A DNA stretch of 41,908 bases. It comes from Caldilineae bacterium (GTDB lineage Bacteria > Chloroflexota > Anaerolineae > DTLA01). Numbering within the stretch: the first letter of the stretch is position 1; each line of letters opens with the position of its first letter. The notes under the pieces were generated by a model. It was given only the letters and a program-made list of their open reading frames with translations. It was not told the DNA's origin and ran no database searches. Positions 23,992 to 34,854 of this stretch are shown here, one piece after another. The stretch covers positions 1 to 41,908 of the forward strand of contig JBBIHX010000007.1 of assembly GCA_037446815.1 (NCBI GenBank). The letters are read 5' to 3'. The translations under genes and the position numbers were made by a program.

Positions 23992-24086
23992 ATGCAAGCC
24001 CCTTTCTGGAAGAATCCATGAAATTCGGTCATGCACGTGAATGGATTCGCGCATGTTGCCGACTGCGCGTCTTTCACCCAGAGGGT

Positions 24087-24102
24087 TGCAAGTTCTATGC
24101 CA
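24087..24102 (-). promoter_or_regulatory. Sigma54 (-24/-12) promoter
   Basis: Minus strand TGGCATAGAACTTGCA, with GG and GC separated by exactly 10 nt, matching TGGCAC-N5-TTGCW at all but one position. It sits directly downstream of rpoN and its activator. Predicted TSS about 24076. Confidence 0.85.
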
Positions 24103-24119
24103 TCCGAGAGGGGCGGCAG

Positions 24120-24160
24120 AAAACCTGACGGGCCATCCGGGGTGGGGGATGGCCCGTCAG
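24120..24160 (-). terminator. Intrinsic terminator of the deoR-rpoN-HK-RR operon
   Basis: Perfect 14-bp inverted repeat CTGACGGGCCATCC (24125-24138) / GGATGGCCCGTCAG (24147-24160) with an 8-nt loop, followed on the minus strand by GTTTTCT. Lies 52 nt after the regulator stop. Confidence 0.75.
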
Positions 24161-24212
24161 ACCGTAGAGAGGGCGAGTTGCGGTAGCCGGCGCCCGGGGA
24201 AGGGGCTGGCTC

Positions 24213-25598
24213 CTATTCCAGTTGATACTTGCGCATCCGGTATCGCAACTCGTCGCGGGAGATCCCAAGTGCGTTTGCCGCGCGGGTCTGGTTGCCGTCG
24301 GCGAGGGCTAGCGCCCTGCGAATCAGGTCCTCCTCCAGATGGGCTACGGCGTCTTTGAGGTTGAGGCCGTGGCCGTTGGACGGCGCGCCGTCGGCACCTG
24401 CCGGCGTGGGCGCCTCGCAGGGCTGGCAAGCGGCAATCTCGGCGGGGAGGTGCTGGGGCCGAATCTCATCGCCGTCGCATAGGATGATGGCGCGCTCAAT
24501 GACGTTTCGTAGTTCGCGGATGTTGCCGGGCCACGAGTATGCCTTCAGCAGGCTCAGCGCCTCGGCGGAGACGCCGGCAATGTTGCGGCCGGTGGACCTG
24601 TTGAAGTCGTCTATGAACGCGGCGACGAACAGGGGCAGGTCCACGATGCGCTCGCGCAGAGGGGGCAGGTTCACGGTAACGACGCCGAGGCGGTAGTAGA
24701 GGTCCTCGCGGAACGTGCCTTCGCGAATGGCCTTGACCAGGTCCTGGTTGGAGGCGGCGATGATGCGGATGTCCACCCTGATGTCGCGGGTGCCGCCCAC
24801 TCGTCTCAGAGTGCGGGTTTCCAGTACCCGCAGGAGTTTCGTCTGCATCTCGGGCTTCATGCCGCTGATTTCGTCCAGGAAGAGCGTACCGCCATCGGCA
24901 GCCTCAATGAGGCCTTTTTTCTGCTTGTGCGCTCCGGTGAAGGCGCCGGCTTCGTAGCCGAAGAGTTCGCTTTCCAGCAGGGCGTCGGGGATGGCGGCGC
25001 AGTTCAGGGCGACGAAGGCCTGTTCCGCGCGGTTGCTCTGCTGGTGGATGGCGTTGGCGACGACTTCCTTGCCCGTGCCGCTTTCGCCCTGCAACAGGAC
25101 GCTGGCGTTTGTCGGCGCGACGCGCATCAGGAGTTGCGCGATTGCTTTCATCTGCGGGGTTTCGCCCACGATCCAGGTGAGCGCGTAGCGGTTGCGGGCT
25201 TCCCGTCGCAGGCGGCGGATTTCCCTGCGCATGGCGGAGGCCTCCAGTGCCTTGGCCGCCACCAGGAGGAGCGTGTCCAGGTTGTAGGGCTTCTTCATGT
25301 AGTCGTAGGCGCCCAGTTTCATGGCCTGCACGGCGCAGTCTATCTCGCCGTGGCCCGTAACGATGATGACCGGGATGTCGGGCTCCTCCTCGCGGATGAC
25401 CCTGAGCACGTCCAGACCGTGCATGTCGGGCAGTTGCTGGTCCAGCAGGACCAGGTCCACCTCCTGGCGGCGGATGATGTCCAGCCCTTCTTGTCCGGTG
25501 AGCGCGCCGAGGCTTTCGTATCCGGCCTCGCGGAGGTCTTCCTGGACGAAATGGTTGAGCGTTTGTTCGTCGTCAACGATGAGTATCGTCGCGGCCAT
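24213..25598 (-). CDS. NtrC-family sigma54-dependent response regulator: REC, AAA+, Fis HTH (461 aa)
   Basis: REC ILIVDDE..LLDQQLP..KP, Walker A GESGTGKE, GAFTGA loop, Walker B LFLDE, FREDLYYRL, WPGNIREL and HTH NQTRAANALGISR. Confidence 0.96.
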   Translation of the reverse strand: MAATILIVDDEQTLNHFVQEDLREAGYESLGALTGQEGLDIIRRQEVDLVLLDQQLPDMHGLDVLRVIREEEPDIPVIIVTGHGEIDCAVQAMKLGAYDYMKKPYNLDTLLLVAAKALEASAMRREIRRLRREARNRYALTWIVGETPQMKAIAQLLMRVAPTNASVLLQGESGTGKEVVANAIHQQSNRAEQAFVALNCAAIPDALLESELFGYEAGAFTGAHKQKKGLIEAADGGTLFLDEISGMKPEMQTKLLRVLETRTLRRVGGTRDIRVDIRIIAASNQDLVKAIREGTFREDLYYRLGVVTVNLPPLRERIVDLPLFVAAFIDDFNRSTGRNIAGVSAEALSLLKAYSWPGNIRELRNVIERAIILCDGDEIRPQHLPAEIAACQPCEAPTPAGADGAPSNGHGLNLKDAVAHLEEDLIRRALALADGNQTRAANALGISRDELRYRMRKYQLE

Positions 25599-25620
25599 TC
25601 TGCTCCCCTCACAGTAGAAT

Positions 25621-28551
25621 CTACGCGGCGACCGGCAGGTCAACGGTGAACACGGTGCCGACGCCTTCCTTGCTGCGCACCGAGATGGTGCCGCGGTGGT
25701 CGGTGATGATGCGGCGGGTGATGGCCAGGCCCAGGCCGGTGCCTTTGGCCTTTGTCGTTACGAACGGTTCAAAGATCTTAGGCAGTTTGTCCTCTGGGAT
25801 GCCGACGCCGGTGTCGGCCACCTCAATGCGAATCCACTCATCCGGCCCGATGGCCACGTCTTGCTGTAGTCTGTCGGCGGCAGGCTCGGGGATAAGCCGC
25901 ACCTTGCGCACGCTGATGCGCAGGTCGCCGCCGTTGGGCATGGCGTCCAGCGCGTTGCTGATGAGGTTGGACAGGGCCTGGTCCAGCCGCAGGGGGTCAA
26001 CCAGGCAGGAGCCGATGCCCGGGGCGTAATTCTTGGTGATGCGGATGCGCTTCTCGGCGGCCTTGCCATGCCAGCGAGCGAGAACGTTCTCCACGATGTC
26101 CGGGACCTGCGCGGGAACCAGGTCCAGCGTGGGCGGGCGCGAGATCATCAGCACGTTCTCTATCAGGCGATTGACCCGTTCGGTTTCCTCCAGGATGAGT
26201 TGGATGGCGCGCTGCTGGGCGGGGTCGGTGATCTTGCGTGCGAGATGCTGGATGCCCGCGCTGATGGAGCCCAGCGGGTTGCGGAGTTCGTGGGCCAGGA
26301 CGGCGGCCATCTCGCCCAGGTCGGCCAGCCGATCCAACTTGCGCTTCTCCTCCTCTATCTTCTTAATCTCGCTCAGGTCGCTGAAGACCAGCAGGAGGCC
26401 GGTTACGACGCCCTGATTGTCGCGAAGGGGGGACGTGTTCAGGCCGATGGGGATTTCGTGCCCGTCGCGGTGGGTGATGACCGTTTCGTAGTTGGAGCAC
26501 GGCGTGCCCTTGTGCAGGGTCTCGGAGAGGATCTCCTGCAGCCCGTTGGACGAGACGAGCACCTGATGCACCGGCTTGCCCAGCAAGTGCTCGCGCGGAT
26601 AGCCGATGATCTTGGCGGCGGCGATGTTGGTGGATGTGATGCGGCCGGACAGGTCCACCGTGATGAGGCCGTTGGTCATGCTCTGGAGCACGTTCTCGTT
26701 GAACTGCTTGATGACGAACAGGTCGCCGATGGCGGTGCGCAATTCTGTGAAGAGCATGGCGTTCTCAATGGCGACGCTGATTTGGTTCGCCACGGCTGTG
26801 AGCAGGTCCACATCCTCCTGCGTGAACCACCGCTGTTTCTGGCTGGCGACGTTCATCACGCCGAGAAGCCTGTCCTTTGCCCGCAACTGGGTGCTGACAA
26901 AGGAGCCGAGGTGCGGTTGCGAGGTCTGGGGCCACCAGGCTCCGGCCAGTTGGGCCACGTTGCCGTTGGAGGCGGTGATGGTGGCGCCGCCGTTCGGCTC
27001 GTTGAAGGGCTGGGACTGCACGGCCAGGACGGGCGGCTCGCCACGATAGACCCGCAGCACCAGGTTTCCGGTGTCCTCGTCAAACAGGTAGATGGCGCCC
27101 ATGTCGGCCCCGACGACGTCCAGCACCTTGTCCAGCGCCGCGTCCAGGATTTCGTCCAGTTCCAGCGACCGGCCGACGGTGGCGGAGACGGCATTGAGCG
27201 CGGATAGGTTGCGGTTGCGTCGCAGGAGTTCACGCTCCATTGCCTTGCGCTCGGTGATGTCGCGCGCGAGAATCTGAATCACCTTGCGGCGGTCAAACTC
27301 TATGACGCTGGCGCTGATGTCCACATCCATGCGGGTGCCGTCCTGCCGGACGAAGACCATGTCGTCAAAGGTGCCCGACCCGTTGAGCAGCACCTCCTGC
27401 AACCTGCCAACGCTGCGCTCGCGCAGGTCGGCGGGGAAGAGGTCGCTGAGGCGCATGTGAAGGAGGGCCTCGCGCCGATAGCCTGTGAATTGCTCGGCCT
27501 TGCGGTTGACCTCCAGGATGCCCGTATCGGCGGGATGGATGGAGAAGATGGCGTCGTTGGCGTTTTCAATGAGCACGCGCTGGCGCTGCTCGGATTCGCG
27601 CAATTTGTGGGTGCGTTCGTGAATCTGGCGGCTCATGGAGCGAAACCACGCATAGGTAACCGCCGCCAAGAGGCAGAGGGCCAGCGCGCCTGCGCCAGCC
27701 AAGAGCAGCCAGTTGTCGGGCAGGGCGTTGCCGTCGCTGGGAACGGCGCCGAACCATTTGCGGACGATCTTGTCCTTGACGTTGTTGCTTTCCAGAGCCG
27801 TTAGCCCCGCATTGAGGAGGGCCAGGAGTTCGGTGTTGTTCTTGCGGACGGCGATGGCGTATCCGCGGCGGCGGAGGGGCTCTCCGACAGCCTTGACGAG
27901 GCCGCTCAGGTTGTTGCGCTGGATGACGTTGCGGCTGGAAAGTTCGTCGCCGACGAAGGCTTCCACCTCTCCGGCCAGGAGCCGATTCAGGCCGTCTTGG
28001 ATGCTGGGGACGGGGACGGCCTGGATGGCGGCGTTGGACTGCACCAGGTAGGCCGCCGGGCTGTTGCTCACGACGGCTACGGTGCGGCTGGCCAGGTCCG
28101 AGAGGCCGTGGATATCCAACCTGTCCGCCGTTACGAAGATGGCCTGGGCGTTGCTCAAGTAGGGCTGGGTGAAGGCGTAGAAGGGGGCCAGTTCCGGGCC
28201 AGGTTCCTGGCCCATGATGCCGTCAATCTCGCCGACGGACAGGGCGGCGCGGGCGTCCTGCACGGCCATGGGGATCACCCGGATGTCGGCATTGAGCGCC
28301 AGCGCCAGGCCCGCGACGAGTTCCTGATCAAACCCGTTGTAGATGCCCGCCTCCGAGGGGAAGAAGAAGGGCGGGTTGTTGGGCTGCGACGCGATGACGA
28401 TTTGACCGTGCTTTTGAAGCCAGGCGCGCTGCGCCTCCTGCGCGCTTGGGGTGCTTTGTGCGCGCGTGGGGCTCCACACGAACCGGTAGGCCAGCCCGCC
28501 GAGGAGTAGCATCAGCGTAAGGATTAGGGCGAACCGCCAGAGTTTGCGCAT
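25621..28551 (-). CDS. Membrane sensor histidine kinase: extracellular amino-acid-type SBP domain, TM, PAS, GAF, PAS, HisKA, HATPase (976 aa)
   Basis: SBP family-3-like NNPPFFF..GFDQEL..YAFTQPYL..YAIAVRK, PAS motifs ENANDAIF..VNR, H-box LAHELRNPL, N box NLISNALDAM and G boxes DTGVGI, GTGLGL. AGGAGG SD precedes ATG 28551. Confidence 0.93.
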   Translation of the reverse strand: MRKLWRFALILTLMLLLGGLAYRFVWSPTRAQSTPSAQEAQRAWLQKHGQIVIASQPNNPPFFFPSEAGIYNGFDQELVAGLALALNADIRVIPMAVQDARAALSVGEIDGIMGQEPGPELAPFYAFTQPYLSNAQAIFVTADRLDIHGLSDLASRTVAVVSNSPAAYLVQSNAAIQAVPVPSIQDGLNRLLAGEVEAFVGDELSSRNVIQRNNLSGLVKAVGEPLRRRGYAIAVRKNNTELLALLNAGLTALESNNVKDKIVRKWFGAVPSDGNALPDNWLLLAGAGALALCLLAAVTYAWFRSMSRQIHERTHKLRESEQRQRVLIENANDAIFSIHPADTGILEVNRKAEQFTGYRREALLHMRLSDLFPADLRERSVGRLQEVLLNGSGTFDDMVFVRQDGTRMDVDISASVIEFDRRKVIQILARDITERKAMERELLRRNRNLSALNAVSATVGRSLELDEILDAALDKVLDVVGADMGAIYLFDEDTGNLVLRVYRGEPPVLAVQSQPFNEPNGGATITASNGNVAQLAGAWWPQTSQPHLGSFVSTQLRAKDRLLGVMNVASQKQRWFTQEDVDLLTAVANQISVAIENAMLFTELRTAIGDLFVIKQFNENVLQSMTNGLITVDLSGRITSTNIAAAKIIGYPREHLLGKPVHQVLVSSNGLQEILSETLHKGTPCSNYETVITHRDGHEIPIGLNTSPLRDNQGVVTGLLLVFSDLSEIKKIEEEKRKLDRLADLGEMAAVLAHELRNPLGSISAGIQHLARKITDPAQQRAIQLILEETERVNRLIENVLMISRPPTLDLVPAQVPDIVENVLARWHGKAAEKRIRITKNYAPGIGSCLVDPLRLDQALSNLISNALDAMPNGGDLRISVRKVRLIPEPAADRLQQDVAIGPDEWIRIEVADTGVGIPEDKLPKIFEPFVTTKAKGTGLGLAITRRIITDHRGTISVRSKEGVGTVFTVDLPVAA

Positions 28552-28576: not shown

Positions 28577-29983
28577 TCATGAGCCACGGAGTCGGGCAGG
28601 AAGGATGCCGAGTTCCTGCCGGTATTTGGCCACCGTGCGGCGCGCGATGGGATAGCCGCGCTGCGCCAGGCGCTTCGCCAGTTCCTGGTCGCTCAGGGGG
28701 CGCTTCTCTTGCGCGATGATTTCCAGCAGCACGTCTTTGACGGCCAGGGACTCGTCAAAGAAATCGGCAAGAGGGATGACGCGCCCGTTGGGAAGAAGAG
28801 CGTACTTGTTGGCGATGGCGCGGCTCACGGTGGATTCGTGGACTCCGATATGTTCTGCCAGTTCTGCCCGCGTGATGGGTTTGATGGAACGATTGCCGTT
28901 TTCCAGAAACTCGGCTTGATAGTTGACCAGCCAATCCCCTATCATTTGCAGCGTTTGCCAACGCTGATTGACGCACCGAATGAACAGTTTGCCTCTGGAC
29001 ATGTAGTCTTTCAGTTGCTGTTTGGCCTCTTCACAGGATGGGTCGTCCTTGCTCTCCAATTCCTGGGCCAGCCGCTTGTACTCCGGAGAGATTCGGAGCG
29101 TGAACGAGCGGCCGGGGAGGACCTCCACCTCAAAGCCCGTGTCGGGCGCGGGCCGCCGCCGGATGGCGATGTCGGGGCGGATGTAGACGGTGTCCGAGGC
29201 GGGTTTGGCCTCGCCCAGGGCCCAGTGCGCGTGGGCGGGCTTGGCGTTGAGATTAGTTCTGATGAATTCGTATTCGGCGCGGATTTCCTCTTCTGTTACC
29301 CCGAGCCGCCGCGCCAGCGCACGCACCTGCTGTTTGAGGAAGAGTTCCCATTCGGCGATGATGGCCTCGGCTAGGGGGCGGGGCTTGCCATCCTCGTGCA
29401 GGCGGCGCAGTTGGATGAGGAGCGCCTCCTGCGGGCCGCTGGCGCCGATGCCCGGCGGGTCCAGACGCTGGAGTTCGACGATCACGCGCCGGACGCGGTC
29501 GCGGGTTACGCCGAGGTTGGCCGCAACGTCCTCGGCCGACACGGTGAGGTAGCCGTGGCTGTCCAGGCTGTCTATGAGGTACTCCGCGATGGGGTGATCG
29601 TCCTGCGCGAGGGCGGGGCGTATTTGCCAGGTCAGGTACTCGGCGAGGCTCGTCGTGCCCGGCACCCGCGAGATTGGGTCGTCGTCCTCGTCGTCCCAGT
29701 CGGGGGAACGGTAATCCTGGTAGTTCCAGCCCTCTGGTTCCCAGTCGTTGGCCCGGGGCGGCTTTCTGCCCGCGCAGTACGGGCACTGGGACCCGCGCAA
29801 AGGGGCGCCGCACAAGGGGCACTGCTCGTGCTCAATCACCTCTAGCACGGGGTTTTGTTCCACCTCTTGAGCAACGGCCTGCTCCAGTTCAGCCGAAGAC
29901 ATGGCCAGCACTTCGTTGGCGATAATCAGTTGCGGCGTGATCTTCAGTTGACTTTCAAGCCTCTGCTCAAGGTACAGCGACAT
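28577..29983 (-). CDS. rpoN: RNA polymerase sigma-54 factor (468 aa)
   Basis: Region I QLKITPQL..L.E..EQNPVLE, core-binding DPPGIGA, HESTVSRA helix-turn-helix and RpoN box ARRTVAKYR. Confidence 0.96.
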   Translation of the reverse strand: MSLYLEQRLESQLKITPQLIIANEVLAMSSAELEQAVAQEVEQNPVLEVIEHEQCPLCGAPLRGSQCPYCAGRKPPRANDWEPEGWNYQDYRSPDWDDEDDDPISRVPGTTSLAEYLTWQIRPALAQDDHPIAEYLIDSLDSHGYLTVSAEDVAANLGVTRDRVRRVIVELQRLDPPGIGASGPQEALLIQLRRLHEDGKPRPLAEAIIAEWELFLKQQVRALARRLGVTEEEIRAEYEFIRTNLNAKPAHAHWALGEAKPASDTVYIRPDIAIRRRPAPDTGFEVEVLPGRSFTLRISPEYKRLAQELESKDDPSCEEAKQQLKDYMSRGKLFIRCVNQRWQTLQMIGDWLVNYQAEFLENGNRSIKPITRAELAEHIGVHESTVSRAIANKYALLPNGRVIPLADFFDESLAVKDVLLEIIAQEKRPLSDQELAKRLAQRGYPIARRTVAKYRQELGILPARLRGS

Positions 29984-30002: not shown

Positions 30003-30794
30003 TCAGGCCAGGATGGTCTCTATGCCCAGGCGCGCGATGGCGGAGATCATGTCGGGCGGCAACTCTCTGCCCGTTACCACTTTGTGGACGGCGGTGAGGG
30101 GGGCAAAGGAGACCAGGGCTACCTTGCCGAACAGGTTGTGTTGCGCCAGCAAGATGACTTCTCGCGCCGCCTGGATCATGGCCTGCTTCACGGTGATTTC
30201 CTCCAGTTGCGAGGTGGTGAGGCCGCGCTCCTGGTCAATGCCCGGAGCAGTCAGGAACAGTTTGTCCACCTGCATTCCCCTCAACGTTTGTTCGGCGACG
30301 TAGCCGACAAGGCCCTGGCGAAGGCCGCGCACAAGGCCGCCGGTGAGGATGGCGCTGACGCCGAAGGACTCGCTGAGTTCCAGCGCGACTTCCAGGTTGT
30401 TGGTCAGCACCGTCAGGTTCCGGCGGGTGGCCTTGATGCGGCGGGCCAGTTGGAGCGTGCCCGGGCCGGAATCAATGATGATGGTTTCGCCCTCGTTTAC
30501 CAGCCTGCTGGCCGCGATAGCCATTCGGGTCAGTTCCTCCCCCTGGATTTTGGCCAGGTCTGCCGCGGGTTCGGGTGTGCGCTCCTCCGCAGGTAGCGGC
30601 TCCTCCGGTGCTGCGATCTGGGACACGGCTCCTCCGTGCGTGCGCTTGATGACGCCCTGCTGGGCCATTTCCGCCAGGTCTCGGCGGATGGTGCTTTCGG
30701 AGGTGTTGAAGCGGGTTGCCAGTTCGGCGACGGTAACGAAGGGCTCCTCCTCCAGCACTTTGCGGATGGCGGCCTGCCTGTCTTCTTTTGTCAT
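30003..30794 (-). CDS. DeoR/GlpR-family transcriptional regulator (263 aa)
   Basis: wHTH RQAAIRKVL..ELATRFNTSESTIRRDL..RTHGGA and sensor domain IIDSGPG..TNN..LTGG..DKLFL. AAGGAGG SD precedes ATG 30794, so the track start at 30965 is over-extended. Confidence 0.93.
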   Translation of the reverse strand: MTKEDRQAAIRKVLEEEPFVTVAELATRFNTSESTIRRDLAEMAQQGVIKRTHGGAVSQIAAPEEPLPAEERTPEPAADLAKIQGEELTRMAIAASRLVNEGETIIIDSGPGTLQLARRIKATRRNLTVLTNNLEVALELSESFGVSAILTGGLVRGLRQGLVGYVAEQTLRGMQVDKLFLTAPGIDQERGLTTSQLEEITVKQAMIQAAREVILLAQHNLFGKVALVSFAPLTAVHKVVTGRELPPDMISAIARLGIETILA

Positions 30795-30957
30795 GGCGAT
30801 CCTCCTTCGGAATGATGCAATCGCCGCGACTGGGTGCTGCCTCGCTCGCCAAGTTGAGCGGGCCTGATGGTACGATGGGCAAGTCGCCATCGCGGTGGGA
30901 AGCCAGCAGTCCCGTTCCCGGCAGCAGTGGGGTTCGTTGGCAATTGGGCCCTGCGCG

Positions 30958-31220
30958 TCGCGCATATTGAGCGTTATTGGTTATGCTCAATATCGCGCAG
31001 GCATTTGCGCAATTGCGCGAACCCTCCTTGCTCTACGCTTGTATTATAGCATACTTTTAGCGAAAAGTCAAGGGGTTTTTGCGCGAATTTTGGGTGAATT
31101 CGGAGATGATGCTAGCAAATGAGCGTCATCATGCGCGATATTGCGCAGTCGGTGATTGCAAATGCGCAATAATGCGCAACGTGCTGCTGGTTGTGGCAAG
31201 ATGGTGCGCGAAAGCGCGCA
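30958..31220. promoter_or_regulatory. Array of TGCGCR-N4-YGCGCA operator-like palindromes flanking the promoter
   Basis: 16-mers at 30984 (TGCTCAATATCGCGCA), 31132 (TGCGCGATATTGCGCA), 31163 (TGCGCAATAATGCGCA) and 31205 (TGCGCGAAAGCGCGCA). Variants at 30958 and 31006, and a half site at 31080. Confidence 0.7.
31043..31071 (-). promoter_or_regulatory. Near-consensus sigma70 promoter of the deoR-rpoN-HK-RR operon
   Basis: TTGACT (31066-31071), 17 nt, TATAAT (31043-31048), with an extended -10 TG. Confidence 0.8.
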
Positions 31221-31317
31221 GCGGGCGAGGATGGAGTGGGGGAGCGGAGAACGCAGTGAAAGACGGGCGGGGTGCCCGCCAAGGCAGGGGATGGCGGGGA
31301 AGAGCAGTGCCCGGCGC

Positions 31318-31812
31318 CTAGCCGCGCTGTGGGTCTGGCGGCGTCTCCGCGTCGTCGCTGCCCTTGGTAACACCCTGCTGGATGGCCATGATGCCGTTGT
31401 TGACGGTGCGCAGGATTTGCTCCAATTCGCGCTGGAGCTTGCCGAGCACTTCTACCACGTAGTCGTCGGCGCCCTTGCGGATGCTCTCGGCGTCTCGCTT
31501 GGCGCGTTCCAGGATGGTGTTGGCGCGCACCATGGCCGCCTTGGTGATCTCGCTCTCCTCGGTAAGGCGGGCGGCCTCTTCGCCGGCCAGGGCGACGATG
31601 CGTTCGCGCTCCTCGCGCGCCTGGGCGAGGACGCGCTCTTTCTCCTGGAGGAGTCGCTTGGCCTGCTGCACTTCCTGCGGGATGCGCGCGCGCATCTCAT
31701 CTATGATTCGCAGCATCTCTTCTTCGTTGACGATGACGTCGGAGGTAAGGGGGATGTGCCAGCCATTGTTGACGGCGGCTTCCAGTTGGTCAATTAGGTG
31801 CAGGATGTCCAT
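31318..31812 (-). CDS. Conserved coiled-coil protein (DivIVA-like architecture) commonly found downstream of coaD (164 aa)
   Basis: MDILHLIDQLE..IPLTSDVIVNEEEMLRIIDEMRARIPQEVQQAK followed by a long heptad-rich region. GGAGG SD. Confidence 0.75.
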   Translation of the reverse strand: MDILHLIDQLEAAVNNGWHIPLTSDVIVNEEEMLRIIDEMRARIPQEVQQAKRLLQEKERVLAQAREERERIVALAGEEAARLTEESEITKAAMVRANTILERAKRDAESIRKGADDYVVEVLGKLQRELEQILRTVNNGIMAIQQGVTKGSDDAETPPDPQRG

Positions 31813-32427: not shown

Positions 32428-34854
32428 CTAACTCAGGTCGCCTTTGTGTTGCCAGAACTCGCGCACTTGCTCGGCGAGCAGTGCATGCTCCGGGCTGGTC
32501 AGGTCAGGGTCCCGTTCAAAGATGCGCAGGGCTTGGCGCCGCGCCTCCTCCAGGATGCGTGTGTCGCTCAACTTGGCGAGGCGCAGGTCGGGCAAACCGC
32601 TCTGGCGGGTGCCGAAGAACTCGCCTGGGCCTCGGAGTTCCAGGTCCTTCTCCGCCAGTTTGAACCCATCGTGAATCTGCTCAATGGCACGCAGGCGTTC
32701 CTGGCTTTCGGGCGTGGCCGAGTCGGAGATGAGGATGCAGTAGGATTGGTGCTCGCCCCGACCGACGCGCCCTCGGAACTGATGCAACTGGGCCAATCCG
32801 AACCGATCCGCGCCTTCCACCATGATAACCGTGGCATTGGGAATGTCAATTCCCACCTCCACGACGGAGGTGGACACCAGGATGTGGTAGTCGCCCTCGC
32901 GGAATCGGCGCATGACCTCGTCCTTCTCGTCGCCGCGCATTCTGCCGTGGAGAAGCCCGAGCCGCAGGTCGGGGAACACGTCGCTCTGGAGCCGGCGGTG
33001 CTCCTCCACGGCGGCTTTGACGTCCAGCGCCTCGGATTCCTCTATGAGCGGGCAGATGATGAAGGCTTGGCGTCCCTCCGCAATCTGCTTGCGGAGGAAG
33101 GTGTAGGCCCTTTCGCGGTCGCGCTGGGGCAGCCAGTAGGTCTTGATCTGCTGGCGGCCGGGCGGCATCTCGTCAATCACCGAGATGTCCAAGTCGCCGT
33201 AGAGGGTGAGGGCGAGGCTGCGCGGGATGGGCGTGGCGCTCATGACTAGCATGTGGGGGTTGAACCCTTTGTCGCGGAGCGTGGCCCGCTGCATGACGCC
33301 GAAGCGGTGCTGCTCGTCTATAACCACGAACGCCAGGTCCTGAAAAGCGACGGAGCCCTGAATCAGGGCGTGGGTGCCGATGATGAGGTTCGCCGTTCCC
33401 TCTTGTATCTCCTGCCGCACGCGCTCCTTCTCGCCGTTGCTGAGGCTGCCGATGAGGAGACGAACGGTCAGGCGGTCCTTGCCGATGCCGGAGGCCTCCA
33501 GGATGCGCGTGATGGTGCGATAGTGCTGCTCGGCCAAGATCTCGGTGGGGGCCATGAGGGCTGCTTGCGCTCCGTTGTCCAGCGCCGCCACGAGCATGCC
33601 GGTGAGGGCCACGACCGTCTTGCCGGAGCCCACGTCGCCCTGCAGCAGGCGGCTCATGGGCTGGGGTTGCGCAATATCGCGCAGAATCTCATCCATTGCC
33701 CGCCTTTGCGCTTGCGTGAGTTCAAAGGGGAGCGACCGGACGAAGGCTTCCACCGTCTGCGGGTTCACGCGCAGGGGGCGCCCGGCCTGCTCACGCCATT
33801 TGCGCCGCTGACGGAGCACGCCCAACTGGATGACGAGGAACTCGTCAAAGCAGAGCCGCCGCCGCGCCTGTTCCAACTTTGCCGTGTCGTCGGGGAAATG
33901 AATTTGGGCGATGGCCGTGGGCAGGTCCACGAGGTTCGCGTCGCGCCGCACGTCTTCGGGGAGCGGGTCGGGCAGCCGCGAGGCCCAGTAGTCCACGGTG
34001 CGCTTTTGCACGCGGCGCAACCAGCGCGGACTGATGCCTTCGGTGAGGGGGTAGATGGGCACGAGACGGGCTGTGTGGATGGCCTCGCCGTTGGACAGTT
34101 CCCATTCGGGCGACTGCATCACCAGGTGGCCCAGGTAGACATCCGTCTTGCCGCTGAGGATGATGCTGCGGCCCTGCTGGAACTGCTTGTCCAGGTAGGG
34201 CTGATTGAACCACGTGGCCTGGATGGTTCCCGACCCGTCGGCGAGGGTAACGGTGGTGATGTGCATGCCGCGCTGCGATTTGCGGCTCTGCACATCCCAG
34301 ATTTGGCCGAGGACGGTAACCTGCTCGCCGGGCCGCAACGTGCCGATGGGCCGAATGGCGCTGTAGTCGTCGTAGCGGCGCGGGAACAGCATGAGGAGGT
34401 CGCGGATGGTGCGAACGCCAAGTTTCTCCAGTTTCTCGGCGTAGCCCGCGTTGATGCCAACGAGCCTTGTAACGGGCGCGTCCAGGCCAAGCCCGCCACG
34501 CGGCGCTTCGCGAGGAGGGGCGGGGGGCGCGGGCCTGGCAACGGGGCGGGCCGAGGCGGGCGGGGGCGCGGGCGGGGTCTCGGCTCCTTCGCCCTCCAGC
34601 CGCGCGACGGTCTTGCGGATGGCGCGGATGACCTCTGCGCGCCCCTCCGCGGTGGAGCGGGTGGGGTAGGCAGTGATGAGGTCTCCGATCTGGCGCACGA
34701 GCGCCTGCTTGTCGGCGCTCGGGTACGCTTCGGAGGCTTCCTTGAGCCAGTGGCTGGCCAGTTTGTCCAATCCCCCGATGACGGCGTCGTTCCTGTAGTC
34801 TCTCTGCTCCTCCAGGTCAAGGATTCTCAACAGTTTCTCTGCAACAGGATTCAT
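32428..34854 (-). CDS. recG: ATP-dependent DNA helicase RecG, with N-terminal extension
   Basis: Wedge domain FPRRY.D, Walker A LQGDVGSGKT, DEQHRFG, MSATPIPR, QLHQFRGRVGRG and TRG motif RGPGEFFGTRQSG. Confidence 0.96.
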   Translation of the reverse strand: MNPVAEKLLRILDLEEQRDYRNDAVIGGLDKLASHWLKEASEAYPSADKQALVRQIGDLITAYPTRSTAEGRAEVIRAIRKTVARLEGEGAETPPAPPPASARPVARPAPPAPPREAPRGGLGLDAPVTRLVGINAGYAEKLEKLGVRTIRDLLMLFPRRYDDYSAIRPIGTLRPGEQVTVLGQIWDVQSRKSQRGMHITTVTLADGSGTIQATWFNQPYLDKQFQQGRSIILSGKTDVYLGHLVMQSPEWELSNGEAIHTARLVPIYPLTEGISPRWLRRVQKRTVDYWASRLPDPLPEDVRRDANLVDLPTAIAQIHFPDDTAKLEQARRRLCFDEFLVIQLGVLRQRRKWREQAGRPLRVNPQTVEAFVRSLPFELTQAQRRAMDEILRDIAQPQPMSRLLQGDVGSGKTVVALTGMLVAALDNGAQAALMAPTEILAEQHYRTITRILEASGIGKDRLTVRLLIGSLSNGEKERVRQEIQEGTANLIIGTHALIQGSVAFQDLAFVVIDEQHRFGVMQRATLRDKGFNPHMLVMSATPIPRSLALTLYGDLDISVIDEMPPGRQQIKTYWLPQRDRERAYTFLRKQIAEGRQAFIICPLIEESEALDVKAAVEEHRRLQSDVFPDLRLGLLHGRMRGDEKDEVMRRFREGDYHILVSTSVVEVGIDIPNATVIMVEGADRFGLAQLHQFRGRVGRGEHQSYCILISDSATPESQERLRAIEQIHDGFKLAEKDLELRGPGEFFGTRQSGLPDLRLAKLSDTRILEEARRQALRIFERDPDLTSPEHALLAEQVREFWQHKGDLS

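Follow-up and report, generated by a model that had tools for sequence, protein, structure and literature searches.

An array of 16-bp motifs and a candidate leader RNA upstream of a deoR-rpoN operon in an uncultured lineage of the Anaerolineae

The region investigated in this study is part of a window of 41,908 nucleotides, the whole stretch of DNA that was analysed, which constitutes one contig of an assembly from an uncultured genus of the Anaerolineae (Chloroflexota) with a size of 3.19 Mb, a G+C content of 65% and a completeness of 94%. All genes around the array described here reside on the minus strand, in the order DegV, recG, coaD-like, unk164, a 522-bp intergenic region, deoR, rpoN, a PAS/GAF histidine kinase and, as final gene of the operon, an NtrC-like sigma-54 activator, with overlapping reading frames following rpoN (Table 1). 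The DeoR protein combines an N-terminal HTH_DeoR domain (PF08220 at 5.4e-18) with a C-terminal DeoRC sensor (PF00455 at 1.7e-43) and, since its score falls under the cut-off of every NCBIfam equivalog, models of the GlpR/AgaR type included, it is best described as a generic member of its family. The genome contains rpoN as its only sigma-54 gene, and a tblastn search with the central AAA+ domain located the sole sigma-54 activator of this 94%-complete assembly at 24213-25643 of the window. It appears that sigma-54 is in this organism dedicated to a single regulator.

The intergenic region upstream of deoR harbors a sigma-70 promoter, whose location on the minus strand implies that 'upstream' corresponds to higher window coordinates. 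This promoter is close to the consensus, with matches at 11 of the 12 positions in addition to an extended -10 element, and its -35 and -10 hexamers are invariant in an alignment of the five species of the genus. The transcription start is predicted at about position 31036, which would result in a leader of 242 nucleotides. A block of A-tracts that adjoins the -35 element, and that is at least nearly invariant in the genus, would fit a promoter of great strength in need of damping. The half site at 31080 described in an earlier note on this DNA, which was made from the sequence alone, is present within this block (TGCGCG at 31080-31085). It is confined to this genome; the other species contain GCGGGA or GCAGGA at the equivalent position. 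Between -60 and +1, no 16-mer of the type described below is found in the genus, and in the contigs L036 and L037 the sequence GCGCG is located inside the promoter spacer. A scan for the -24/-12 motif TGGC[AC][CT]-N5-TTGC[AT] did not detect a sigma-54 promoter in the region 30795-31317. In the intergenic sequences nearby, a good match is found only at about 24102, and a partial motif, which in four species overlaps the sigma-70 promoter, lacks conservation.

Table 1. Coordinates of the intergenic features upstream of deoR and of neighboring genes within the window. Positions relative to the promoter refer to the predicted transcription start.
Feature	Position	Strand	Description
unk164	31318-31812	-	164-residue coiled-coil protein of unknown function; upstream of the array and co-directional
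Distal 16-mer TGCGCGAAAGCGCGCA	31205-31220	-	centre at about -176; in this genome and G002 only (2 of 5 species)
16-mer TGCGCAATAATGCGCA	31163-31178	-	centre at -134; position kept in 5 of 5 species of the genus
16-mer TGCGCGATATTGCGCA	31132-31147	-	centre at -103; 31-bp spacing to the -134 site kept in 5 of 5 species; sister-clade site at -112
TGCTAGCA	31110-31117	-	degenerate in this genome; in the other four species a single TGCGCA hexamer with start at -79, in phase with both 16-mers
A-tract block (AAAATTC...AAAACCCC)	31072-31103	-	adjoins the -35 element on its upstream side; UP-element-like; kept in both clades
Sigma-70 promoter	31043-31071	-	TTGACT (-35, 31071-31066), 17 nt, TGcTATAAT (extended -10, 31051-31043)
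Structured 5' leader of deoR (candidate)	30795-31036	-	about 242 nt; conserved
TGCGCA-AT-TGCGCG	31006-31019	-	about +17 to +30; one hexamer kept in all relatives; paired in the predicted leader fold
Domain I hairpin	30951-31000	-	central helix 30985-30993/30964-30972; outer helix 30994-31000/30951-30957; 5' arm 30984-30999
Leader 3' part (domains II-III)	30783-30923	-	nearly invariant; helix junction and hairpin GGCGAUU/GAUCGCC; matches covariance model R1
deoR	30003-30794	-	HTH_DeoR and DeoRC domains, 263 residues; heads the operon; candidate for binding the array
rpoN (sigma-54)	28577-29983	-	starts 19 nt past deoR; probably co-transcribed with deoR

Upstream of the promoter, three exact copies of the 16-mer TGCGCRNNNNYGCGCA (TGCGCR-N4-YGCGCA) are found within 90 bp, at the positions 31132, 31163 and 31205 that were already recognized in the earlier note. 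A site at 30984, which was there counted as fourth exact copy, contains one mismatch (TGCTCA in the sequence TGCTCAATATCGCGCA); the spacings of 148, 52, 31 and 42 nucleotides that were derived from these positions and the half site are correct. We found another site with a single mismatch at 31006, and a fourth exact match, overlooked previously, at 33668 inside recG. The window thus contains four exact 16-mers compared to 0.09 expected, a number that is reached in none of 100 shuffles. In the whole genome of 3.19 Mb, there are eight such 16-mers compared to about 8.8 expected, as calculated from hexamer counts, and this chance-level number argues against a genome-wide regulon. Among these eight, only the four on this contig contain an A/T-rich spacer. 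The region between 30952 and 31220 is in turn distinguished by a density of 12 YGCGCA/TGCGCR hexamers per 300 bp, which is unique in the genome, the next densest cluster (C50) comprising eight hexamers that are part of the coding sequence of ribosomal protein L4. A motif that is equally frequent in random intergenic DNA, which according to the earlier note would have refuted its proposal, is thus not what we observe.

The 16-mer is asymmetric, with its right half, WTYGCGCAY, being the stronger one. Since GCGC is self-complementary, what appears as a palindrome may equally be a direct repeat of hexamers with a 10-bp period; in L037, the hexamers are repeated with a period of 8 bp. We have also considered the match inside recG (33668-33683) as a remote operator and rejected it as a coding coincidence. 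It encodes the residues LRDIAQ, which shortly precede the Walker A motif, and the corresponding stretch encodes LHDIAQ in the other species of the genus (TGCACG, with one mismatch) and LADIAQ, without a site, in the sister clade.

The genus alignment, which comprises this genome and four other species with DeoR proteins of 94-95% identity, reveals that the sequences separating the 16-mers have been scrambled between the five species and that the sites at -134 and -103 keep their position at a distance of exactly 31 bp. Together with the hexamer at -79, which is found in four of the species, the hexamers start at -142, -132, -111, -101 and -79 and are located on one helix face. Orthologues of DeoR form a narrow group, with identities of 93-95%, 71-77% and 56-59% before a drop to 45% or less. 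On contigs of sufficient length, the synteny from recG via coaD, unk164, a long intergenic region, deoR and rpoN to the kinase persists at DeoR identities as low as 71%, and those with identities of 71-77% have intergenic regions of 580-660 bp with the same promoter. The hexamers are still found in L037, with 56% DeoR identity, a short contig that, as others of its kind, shows only deoR and its immediate neighbors. In total, we scanned 12 upstream regions from the DeoR clade, which represent 11 distinct lineages as two of the regions come from near-identical members of the genus, and the motif is present in each of them. If up to one mismatch is permitted, these 12 regions contain 23 sites compared to 0.5 expected and a maximum of five in dinucleotide shuffles. 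Departures from the consensus in the 16-mers are one-sided and break the pairing between the two halves, with no compensatory double changes, which indicates that it is the DNA sequence that is conserved and not a hairpin.

The proposal of the earlier note that all sites fall on one helix face describes this genome well, although not its relatives. For the five starts named there, the Rayleigh R amounts to 0.95 with a 10.5-bp period (0.95-0.98 for the sites in this genome), and about 1.4-2% of random placements are phased as well as this if the period may vary between 10 and 11 bp. In the relatives, only the spacing of 31 bp is constant, and the spacings of 44, 49, 66, 73 and 76 bp that are found outside the genus correspond to fractional turns of 0.19, 0.67, 0.29, 0.95 and 0.24. 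The phasing is thus a real property of the 31-bp core pair and not of the array in general.

Downstream of the predicted transcription start, the leader of deoR folds with a predicted free energy of -104 kcal/mol and an MFE z-score of -4.08 relative to shuffled sequence. RNAalifold divides it into three domains, of which domain I is a long hairpin, domain II a junction with hardly any variation and domain III a terminal hairpin. In the sister clade, the helix of domain I contains either U-A or C-G at its position 2, A-U or G-C at position 7, G-C or C-G at position 8, and C-G, G-C or U-A at position 9, and the stretch homologous to the 30984 site no longer fits the operator pattern. This maintenance of pairing by compensatory changes suggests that the 30984 site is conserved as RNA structure and not as operator. 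We thus consider the palindromes downstream of the start (30951-31020) to be mainly helices of a structured leader RNA.

The 3' hairpin of the leader encloses the Shine-Dalgarno sequence AAGGAGG (30801-30807) and abuts the AUG start codon (30792-30794). The conservation of domains II and III equals or exceeds that of the adjacent coding DNA, and the presence of a 1-nt indel relative to other species in the most conserved stretch of the leader rules out a coding explanation. In these two domains, 96.5% of the cells are paired compared to 33-45% in slid controls, and the covariation is not significant, as its score is reached in 74 of 500 shuffles. A cmscan search of both strands between 30000 and 32500 against 4227 Rfam families returned no match at E-values up to 1. 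A covariance model of this part of the leader finds one copy per genome and gives strong hits in the five genomes of the genus among 401 representatives of the Anaerolineae, with one extra match in G027 (24 bits, E of about 0.006) that we take as spurious. These properties make the leader a candidate for a new cis-regulatory RNA. A second AAGGAGG at 31023-31029, shortly behind the predicted transcription start, was evaluated as orphan Shine-Dalgarno sequence of a 12-codon upstream reading frame and dismissed, as the four other species of the genus differ at this stretch (which reads, for example, CCCGAGG or CCGGTGG).

The comparison also covered four relatives that lack DeoR (the genomes G061 and G015 and the metagenome contigs L064 and L065). 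In these, the orthologous rpoN and regulator are kept, in three cases with the kinase in between, and none of them contains YGCGCA or TGCGCR hexamers upstream of rpoN. The presence of the array in the DeoR clade and its absence from these relatives, of which there are only four, all distant, favors autoregulation by DeoR over feedback by the NtrC-like protein, orthologues of which are, at 56-61% identity, widespread in the Anaerolineae. In G061 and G015, rpoN is preceded by the textbook sigma-54 promoter TGGCACNNTTCTTGCA and a sigma-70 -10 element, which suggests that rpoN may be subject to positive autoregulation in relatives without DeoR and that this mode of control would have been replaced in the DeoR clade. 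The sigma-54 promoters of these rpoN genes read TGGCACGCTTCTTGCA or TGGCACACTTCTTGCA and are located at about 3816 of L059 (G061) and 5680 of L060 (G015).

A second location where the hexamers are found concerns the sigma-54 promoter TGGCATAGAACTTGCA at about 24102, which resides on the minus strand downstream of the operon. Its 5' untranslated region (24010-24105) contains CGCGCA, TGCGCG 16 bp further on and CGTGCA after another 16 bp. The element GCGYRAATYC in 5' untranslated regions of this type is common to the DeoR clade, including the sister-clade contigs L061-L063, and neither this element nor the hexamers are found in the equivalent region of the DeoR-less L064 and L065. Whichever factor binds the array may have a second target in this region. 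The hexamers would fit DeoR acting at both promoters, and they would equally fit another clade-specific factor. Between the stop codon of the regulator gene and the sigma-54 promoter (24115-24215, minus strand), there are in addition a block, CCAGCCCCTTCCCC...GCAACTCGCCCTCTCTACGG, and a terminator hairpin. Both are kept in the genus and in the sister clade, with the distance between hairpin and promoter ranging from about 6 to 120 nucleotides. The block is a candidate for the enhancer of the activator. Relatives without DeoR contain palindromes resembling GGAAWTTCC in its place.

In light of these observations, the three 16-mers at 31132-31220 may be regarded as DeoR operators for the cooperative damping of the regulator's own operon, an assignment whose chances we consider to be about even. 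Autorepression by DeoR, as proposed in the earlier note, is in our view the best reading of a sequence in which the array fronts deoR, is specific to this locus and tracks the presence of the protein. The part of this proposal that did not hold up is the loop bracketing the promoter. In a full version of such a switch, one DeoR oligomer would bind the upstream sites (31132-31220) and downstream sites at 30984 and 31006 simultaneously to enclose and shut the promoter. This would be in line with the common helix face of all sites in this genome (with a null probability of about 0.02), with the hexamer near +17 to +30 that is found in all relatives and with the properties of DeoR from E. coli, where several separated operators act cooperatively and by DNA looping (PMC8053113). 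It is at odds with the described features of domain I, where the 30984 site carries its mismatch as arm of a hairpin and where its homologue in the sister clade has accumulated four or more mismatches while retaining the pairing with the opposite arm, and also with the shift in phase that is caused in G001, G002 and G003 by indels of one nucleotide in the DNA separating the upstream sites from the leader. The bracketing loop is for these reasons unsupported and we regard it as quite improbable. The hexamer at +17 to +30 itself is a possible promoter-proximal operator. Even further from what the data suggest is a scenario where the upstream palindromes would act as nucleic-acid hairpins, either as terminator or stabilizing stem-loops of unk164 or as REP-like elements, instead of protein binding sites. 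Each 16-mer could form a 6-bp stem with a loop of four nucleotides, and the sites are located downstream of a co-directional gene that ends at 31318. However, the variants found in relatives break the pairing on one side without compensation, the elements are not repeated in any other cluster or with an A/T-rich spacer elsewhere in the 3.19 Mb, and a separate GC hairpin can be read from the sequence directly after the stop codon of unk164. The probability of the scenario thus appears close to negligible.

If the sites are bound by a protein, this could be one other than DeoR. The NtrC-like response regulator, product of the last gene of the operon and named as alternative in the earlier note, could bind the array and exert feedback as NtrC does at glnA/glnL. 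The TGC...GCA dyad and the presence of two sites at a distance of three turns resemble NtrC enhancers, the regulator is the only bEBP of the genome, and conserved YGCGCR hexamers are found in the 5' untranslated region of a sigma-54 promoter that is presumably activated by it. This possibility is disfavored by the absence of a -24/-12 motif from 30795-31317 and by a motif that does not follow the orthologues of the regulator, which are found in the four relatives whose rpoN is not preceded by hexamers. A sigma-70 promoter, moreover, cannot be activated by a bEBP. Behind the regulator gene of L064 and L065 there is a sigma-54 promoter, and the hexamers are also missing from the 5' untranslated region of this promoter. 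The likelier enhancer would be the other conserved block just upstream of the sigma-54 promoter at about 24102, which does not contain TGCGCR. We thus judge a role of the NtrC-like protein at the array to be very unlikely. Somewhat less remote, although still unlikely, is the binding of a protein that is encoded elsewhere in the genome, with the proximity of deoR being incidental. The evidence on the identity of the binder is indirect, and the fact that none of the 16-mers overlaps with the core promoter would be unusual for simple autorepression. For such a protein, the regulon would be restricted to one locus, as the motif is found in no other clustered copy or copy with A/T-rich spacer in the genome, and the array tracks the presence of DeoR. 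Searches of the literature for TGCGCA in combination with DeoR, and for rpoN in combination with DeoR and Chloroflexi, did not return anything relevant.

Assuming that DeoR is the binding protein, a mechanism can be proposed where a DeoR oligomer would bind the in-phase pair at -134 and -103 cooperatively, extending in the sister species to the hexamer at -79. Binding would lower the transcription of deoR, rpoN, the kinase and the NtrC-like regulator, and hence of the only pair of sigma-54 and activator in the genome. Since the full 16-mers are clear of the core promoter, repression from -103 and -134 would require either a loop, which could be short and reach to the proximal hexamer near +20, or interference with the UP-like element. 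A sugar-phosphate-type effector might release DeoR, as in other repressors of the DeoR/GlpR family. The leader would in turn set the translation of deoR, with the 3' hairpin that encloses the ribosome-binding site conferring a second, post-transcriptional layer of control. A more far-reaching version of this scheme, which is speculative and which we hold to be rather unlikely as a whole, describes a clade-specific gate with two layers, consisting of DeoR operators and of a ligand- or protein-responsive leader RNA controlling access to the ribosome-binding site. In this scheme DeoR would have the sigma-54-dependent operon as an additional target, which it would clamp via the conserved GCGYRAATYC hexamers in the 5' untranslated region, and a sugar-phosphate signal would license the expression of that operon.

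The relevance of the locus lies in the genes at its downstream end, as array and leader would control rpoN and the only enhancer-binding activator that was found in the 94%-complete assembly. It appears that sigma-54 autoregulation gave way in this clade to a DeoR repressor, combined with a strong sigma-70 promoter and a leader that is both long and structured. Such a rewiring of regulation, in a lineage without cultured members, is amenable to experimental tests, and the locus yields a defined 16-bp motif and a candidate RNA.

The described features can be compared to several known systems. The operators of E. coli DeoR are 16-bp palindromes with the half-site sequence TGTTAGAA. As at the deo operon with its operators O1, O2 and OE, the regulator investigated here combines HTH_DeoR and DeoRC domains. 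In contrast to deo, its putative half site TGCGCR is unrelated to TGTTAGAA, the sites are located 31-42 bp apart upstream of a single promoter instead of being separated by hundreds of bp and serving two promoters, and the targets would be the regulator itself, sigma-54 and a two-component system instead of a catabolic operon. The E. coli repressor GlpR acts at glpD, glpFK and glpACB on arrays of half sites with a periodicity of about 10 bp on one helix face. With these, our locus shares a protein of the DeoR/GlpR family and repeated half sites, which in this genome are in phase, whereas GlpR arrays overlap the promoter or transcription start and the full sites described here are found at -103 to -176, with no glycerol-3-phosphate genes near the array. 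At glnAp2/glnAp1, NtrC binds two dyad sites about three turns apart and about 100-140 bp upstream, in an operon that encodes an NtrC-type regulator. The paired dyads of our array are separated by a similar number of turns at a similar distance, in front of an operon with its own NtrC-type regulator. The resemblance does not extend to the promoter, which downstream of the sites is not of the sigma-54 type, or to the distribution of the motif, which is absent where only the regulator orthologue is present. The leader finally resembles riboswitch-like or protein-binding leaders that sequester the Shine-Dalgarno sequence, in its length, its conservation and its strong folding, and in the terminal hairpin that surrounds Shine-Dalgarno sequence and AUG. 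Unlike known leaders of this kind, it matches no Rfam family and is, apart from the weak match in G027, found in this genus only, among the 401 Anaerolineae representatives, with one copy per genome. Collectively, the architecture of the regulator and the repeated, conserved sites would place the array among the DeoR-type multi-operator systems, with a function probably similar to deo and glp. As an operator array it is conventional; what is less ordinary is the leader RNA outside of any described family and the set of genes that the array would control.
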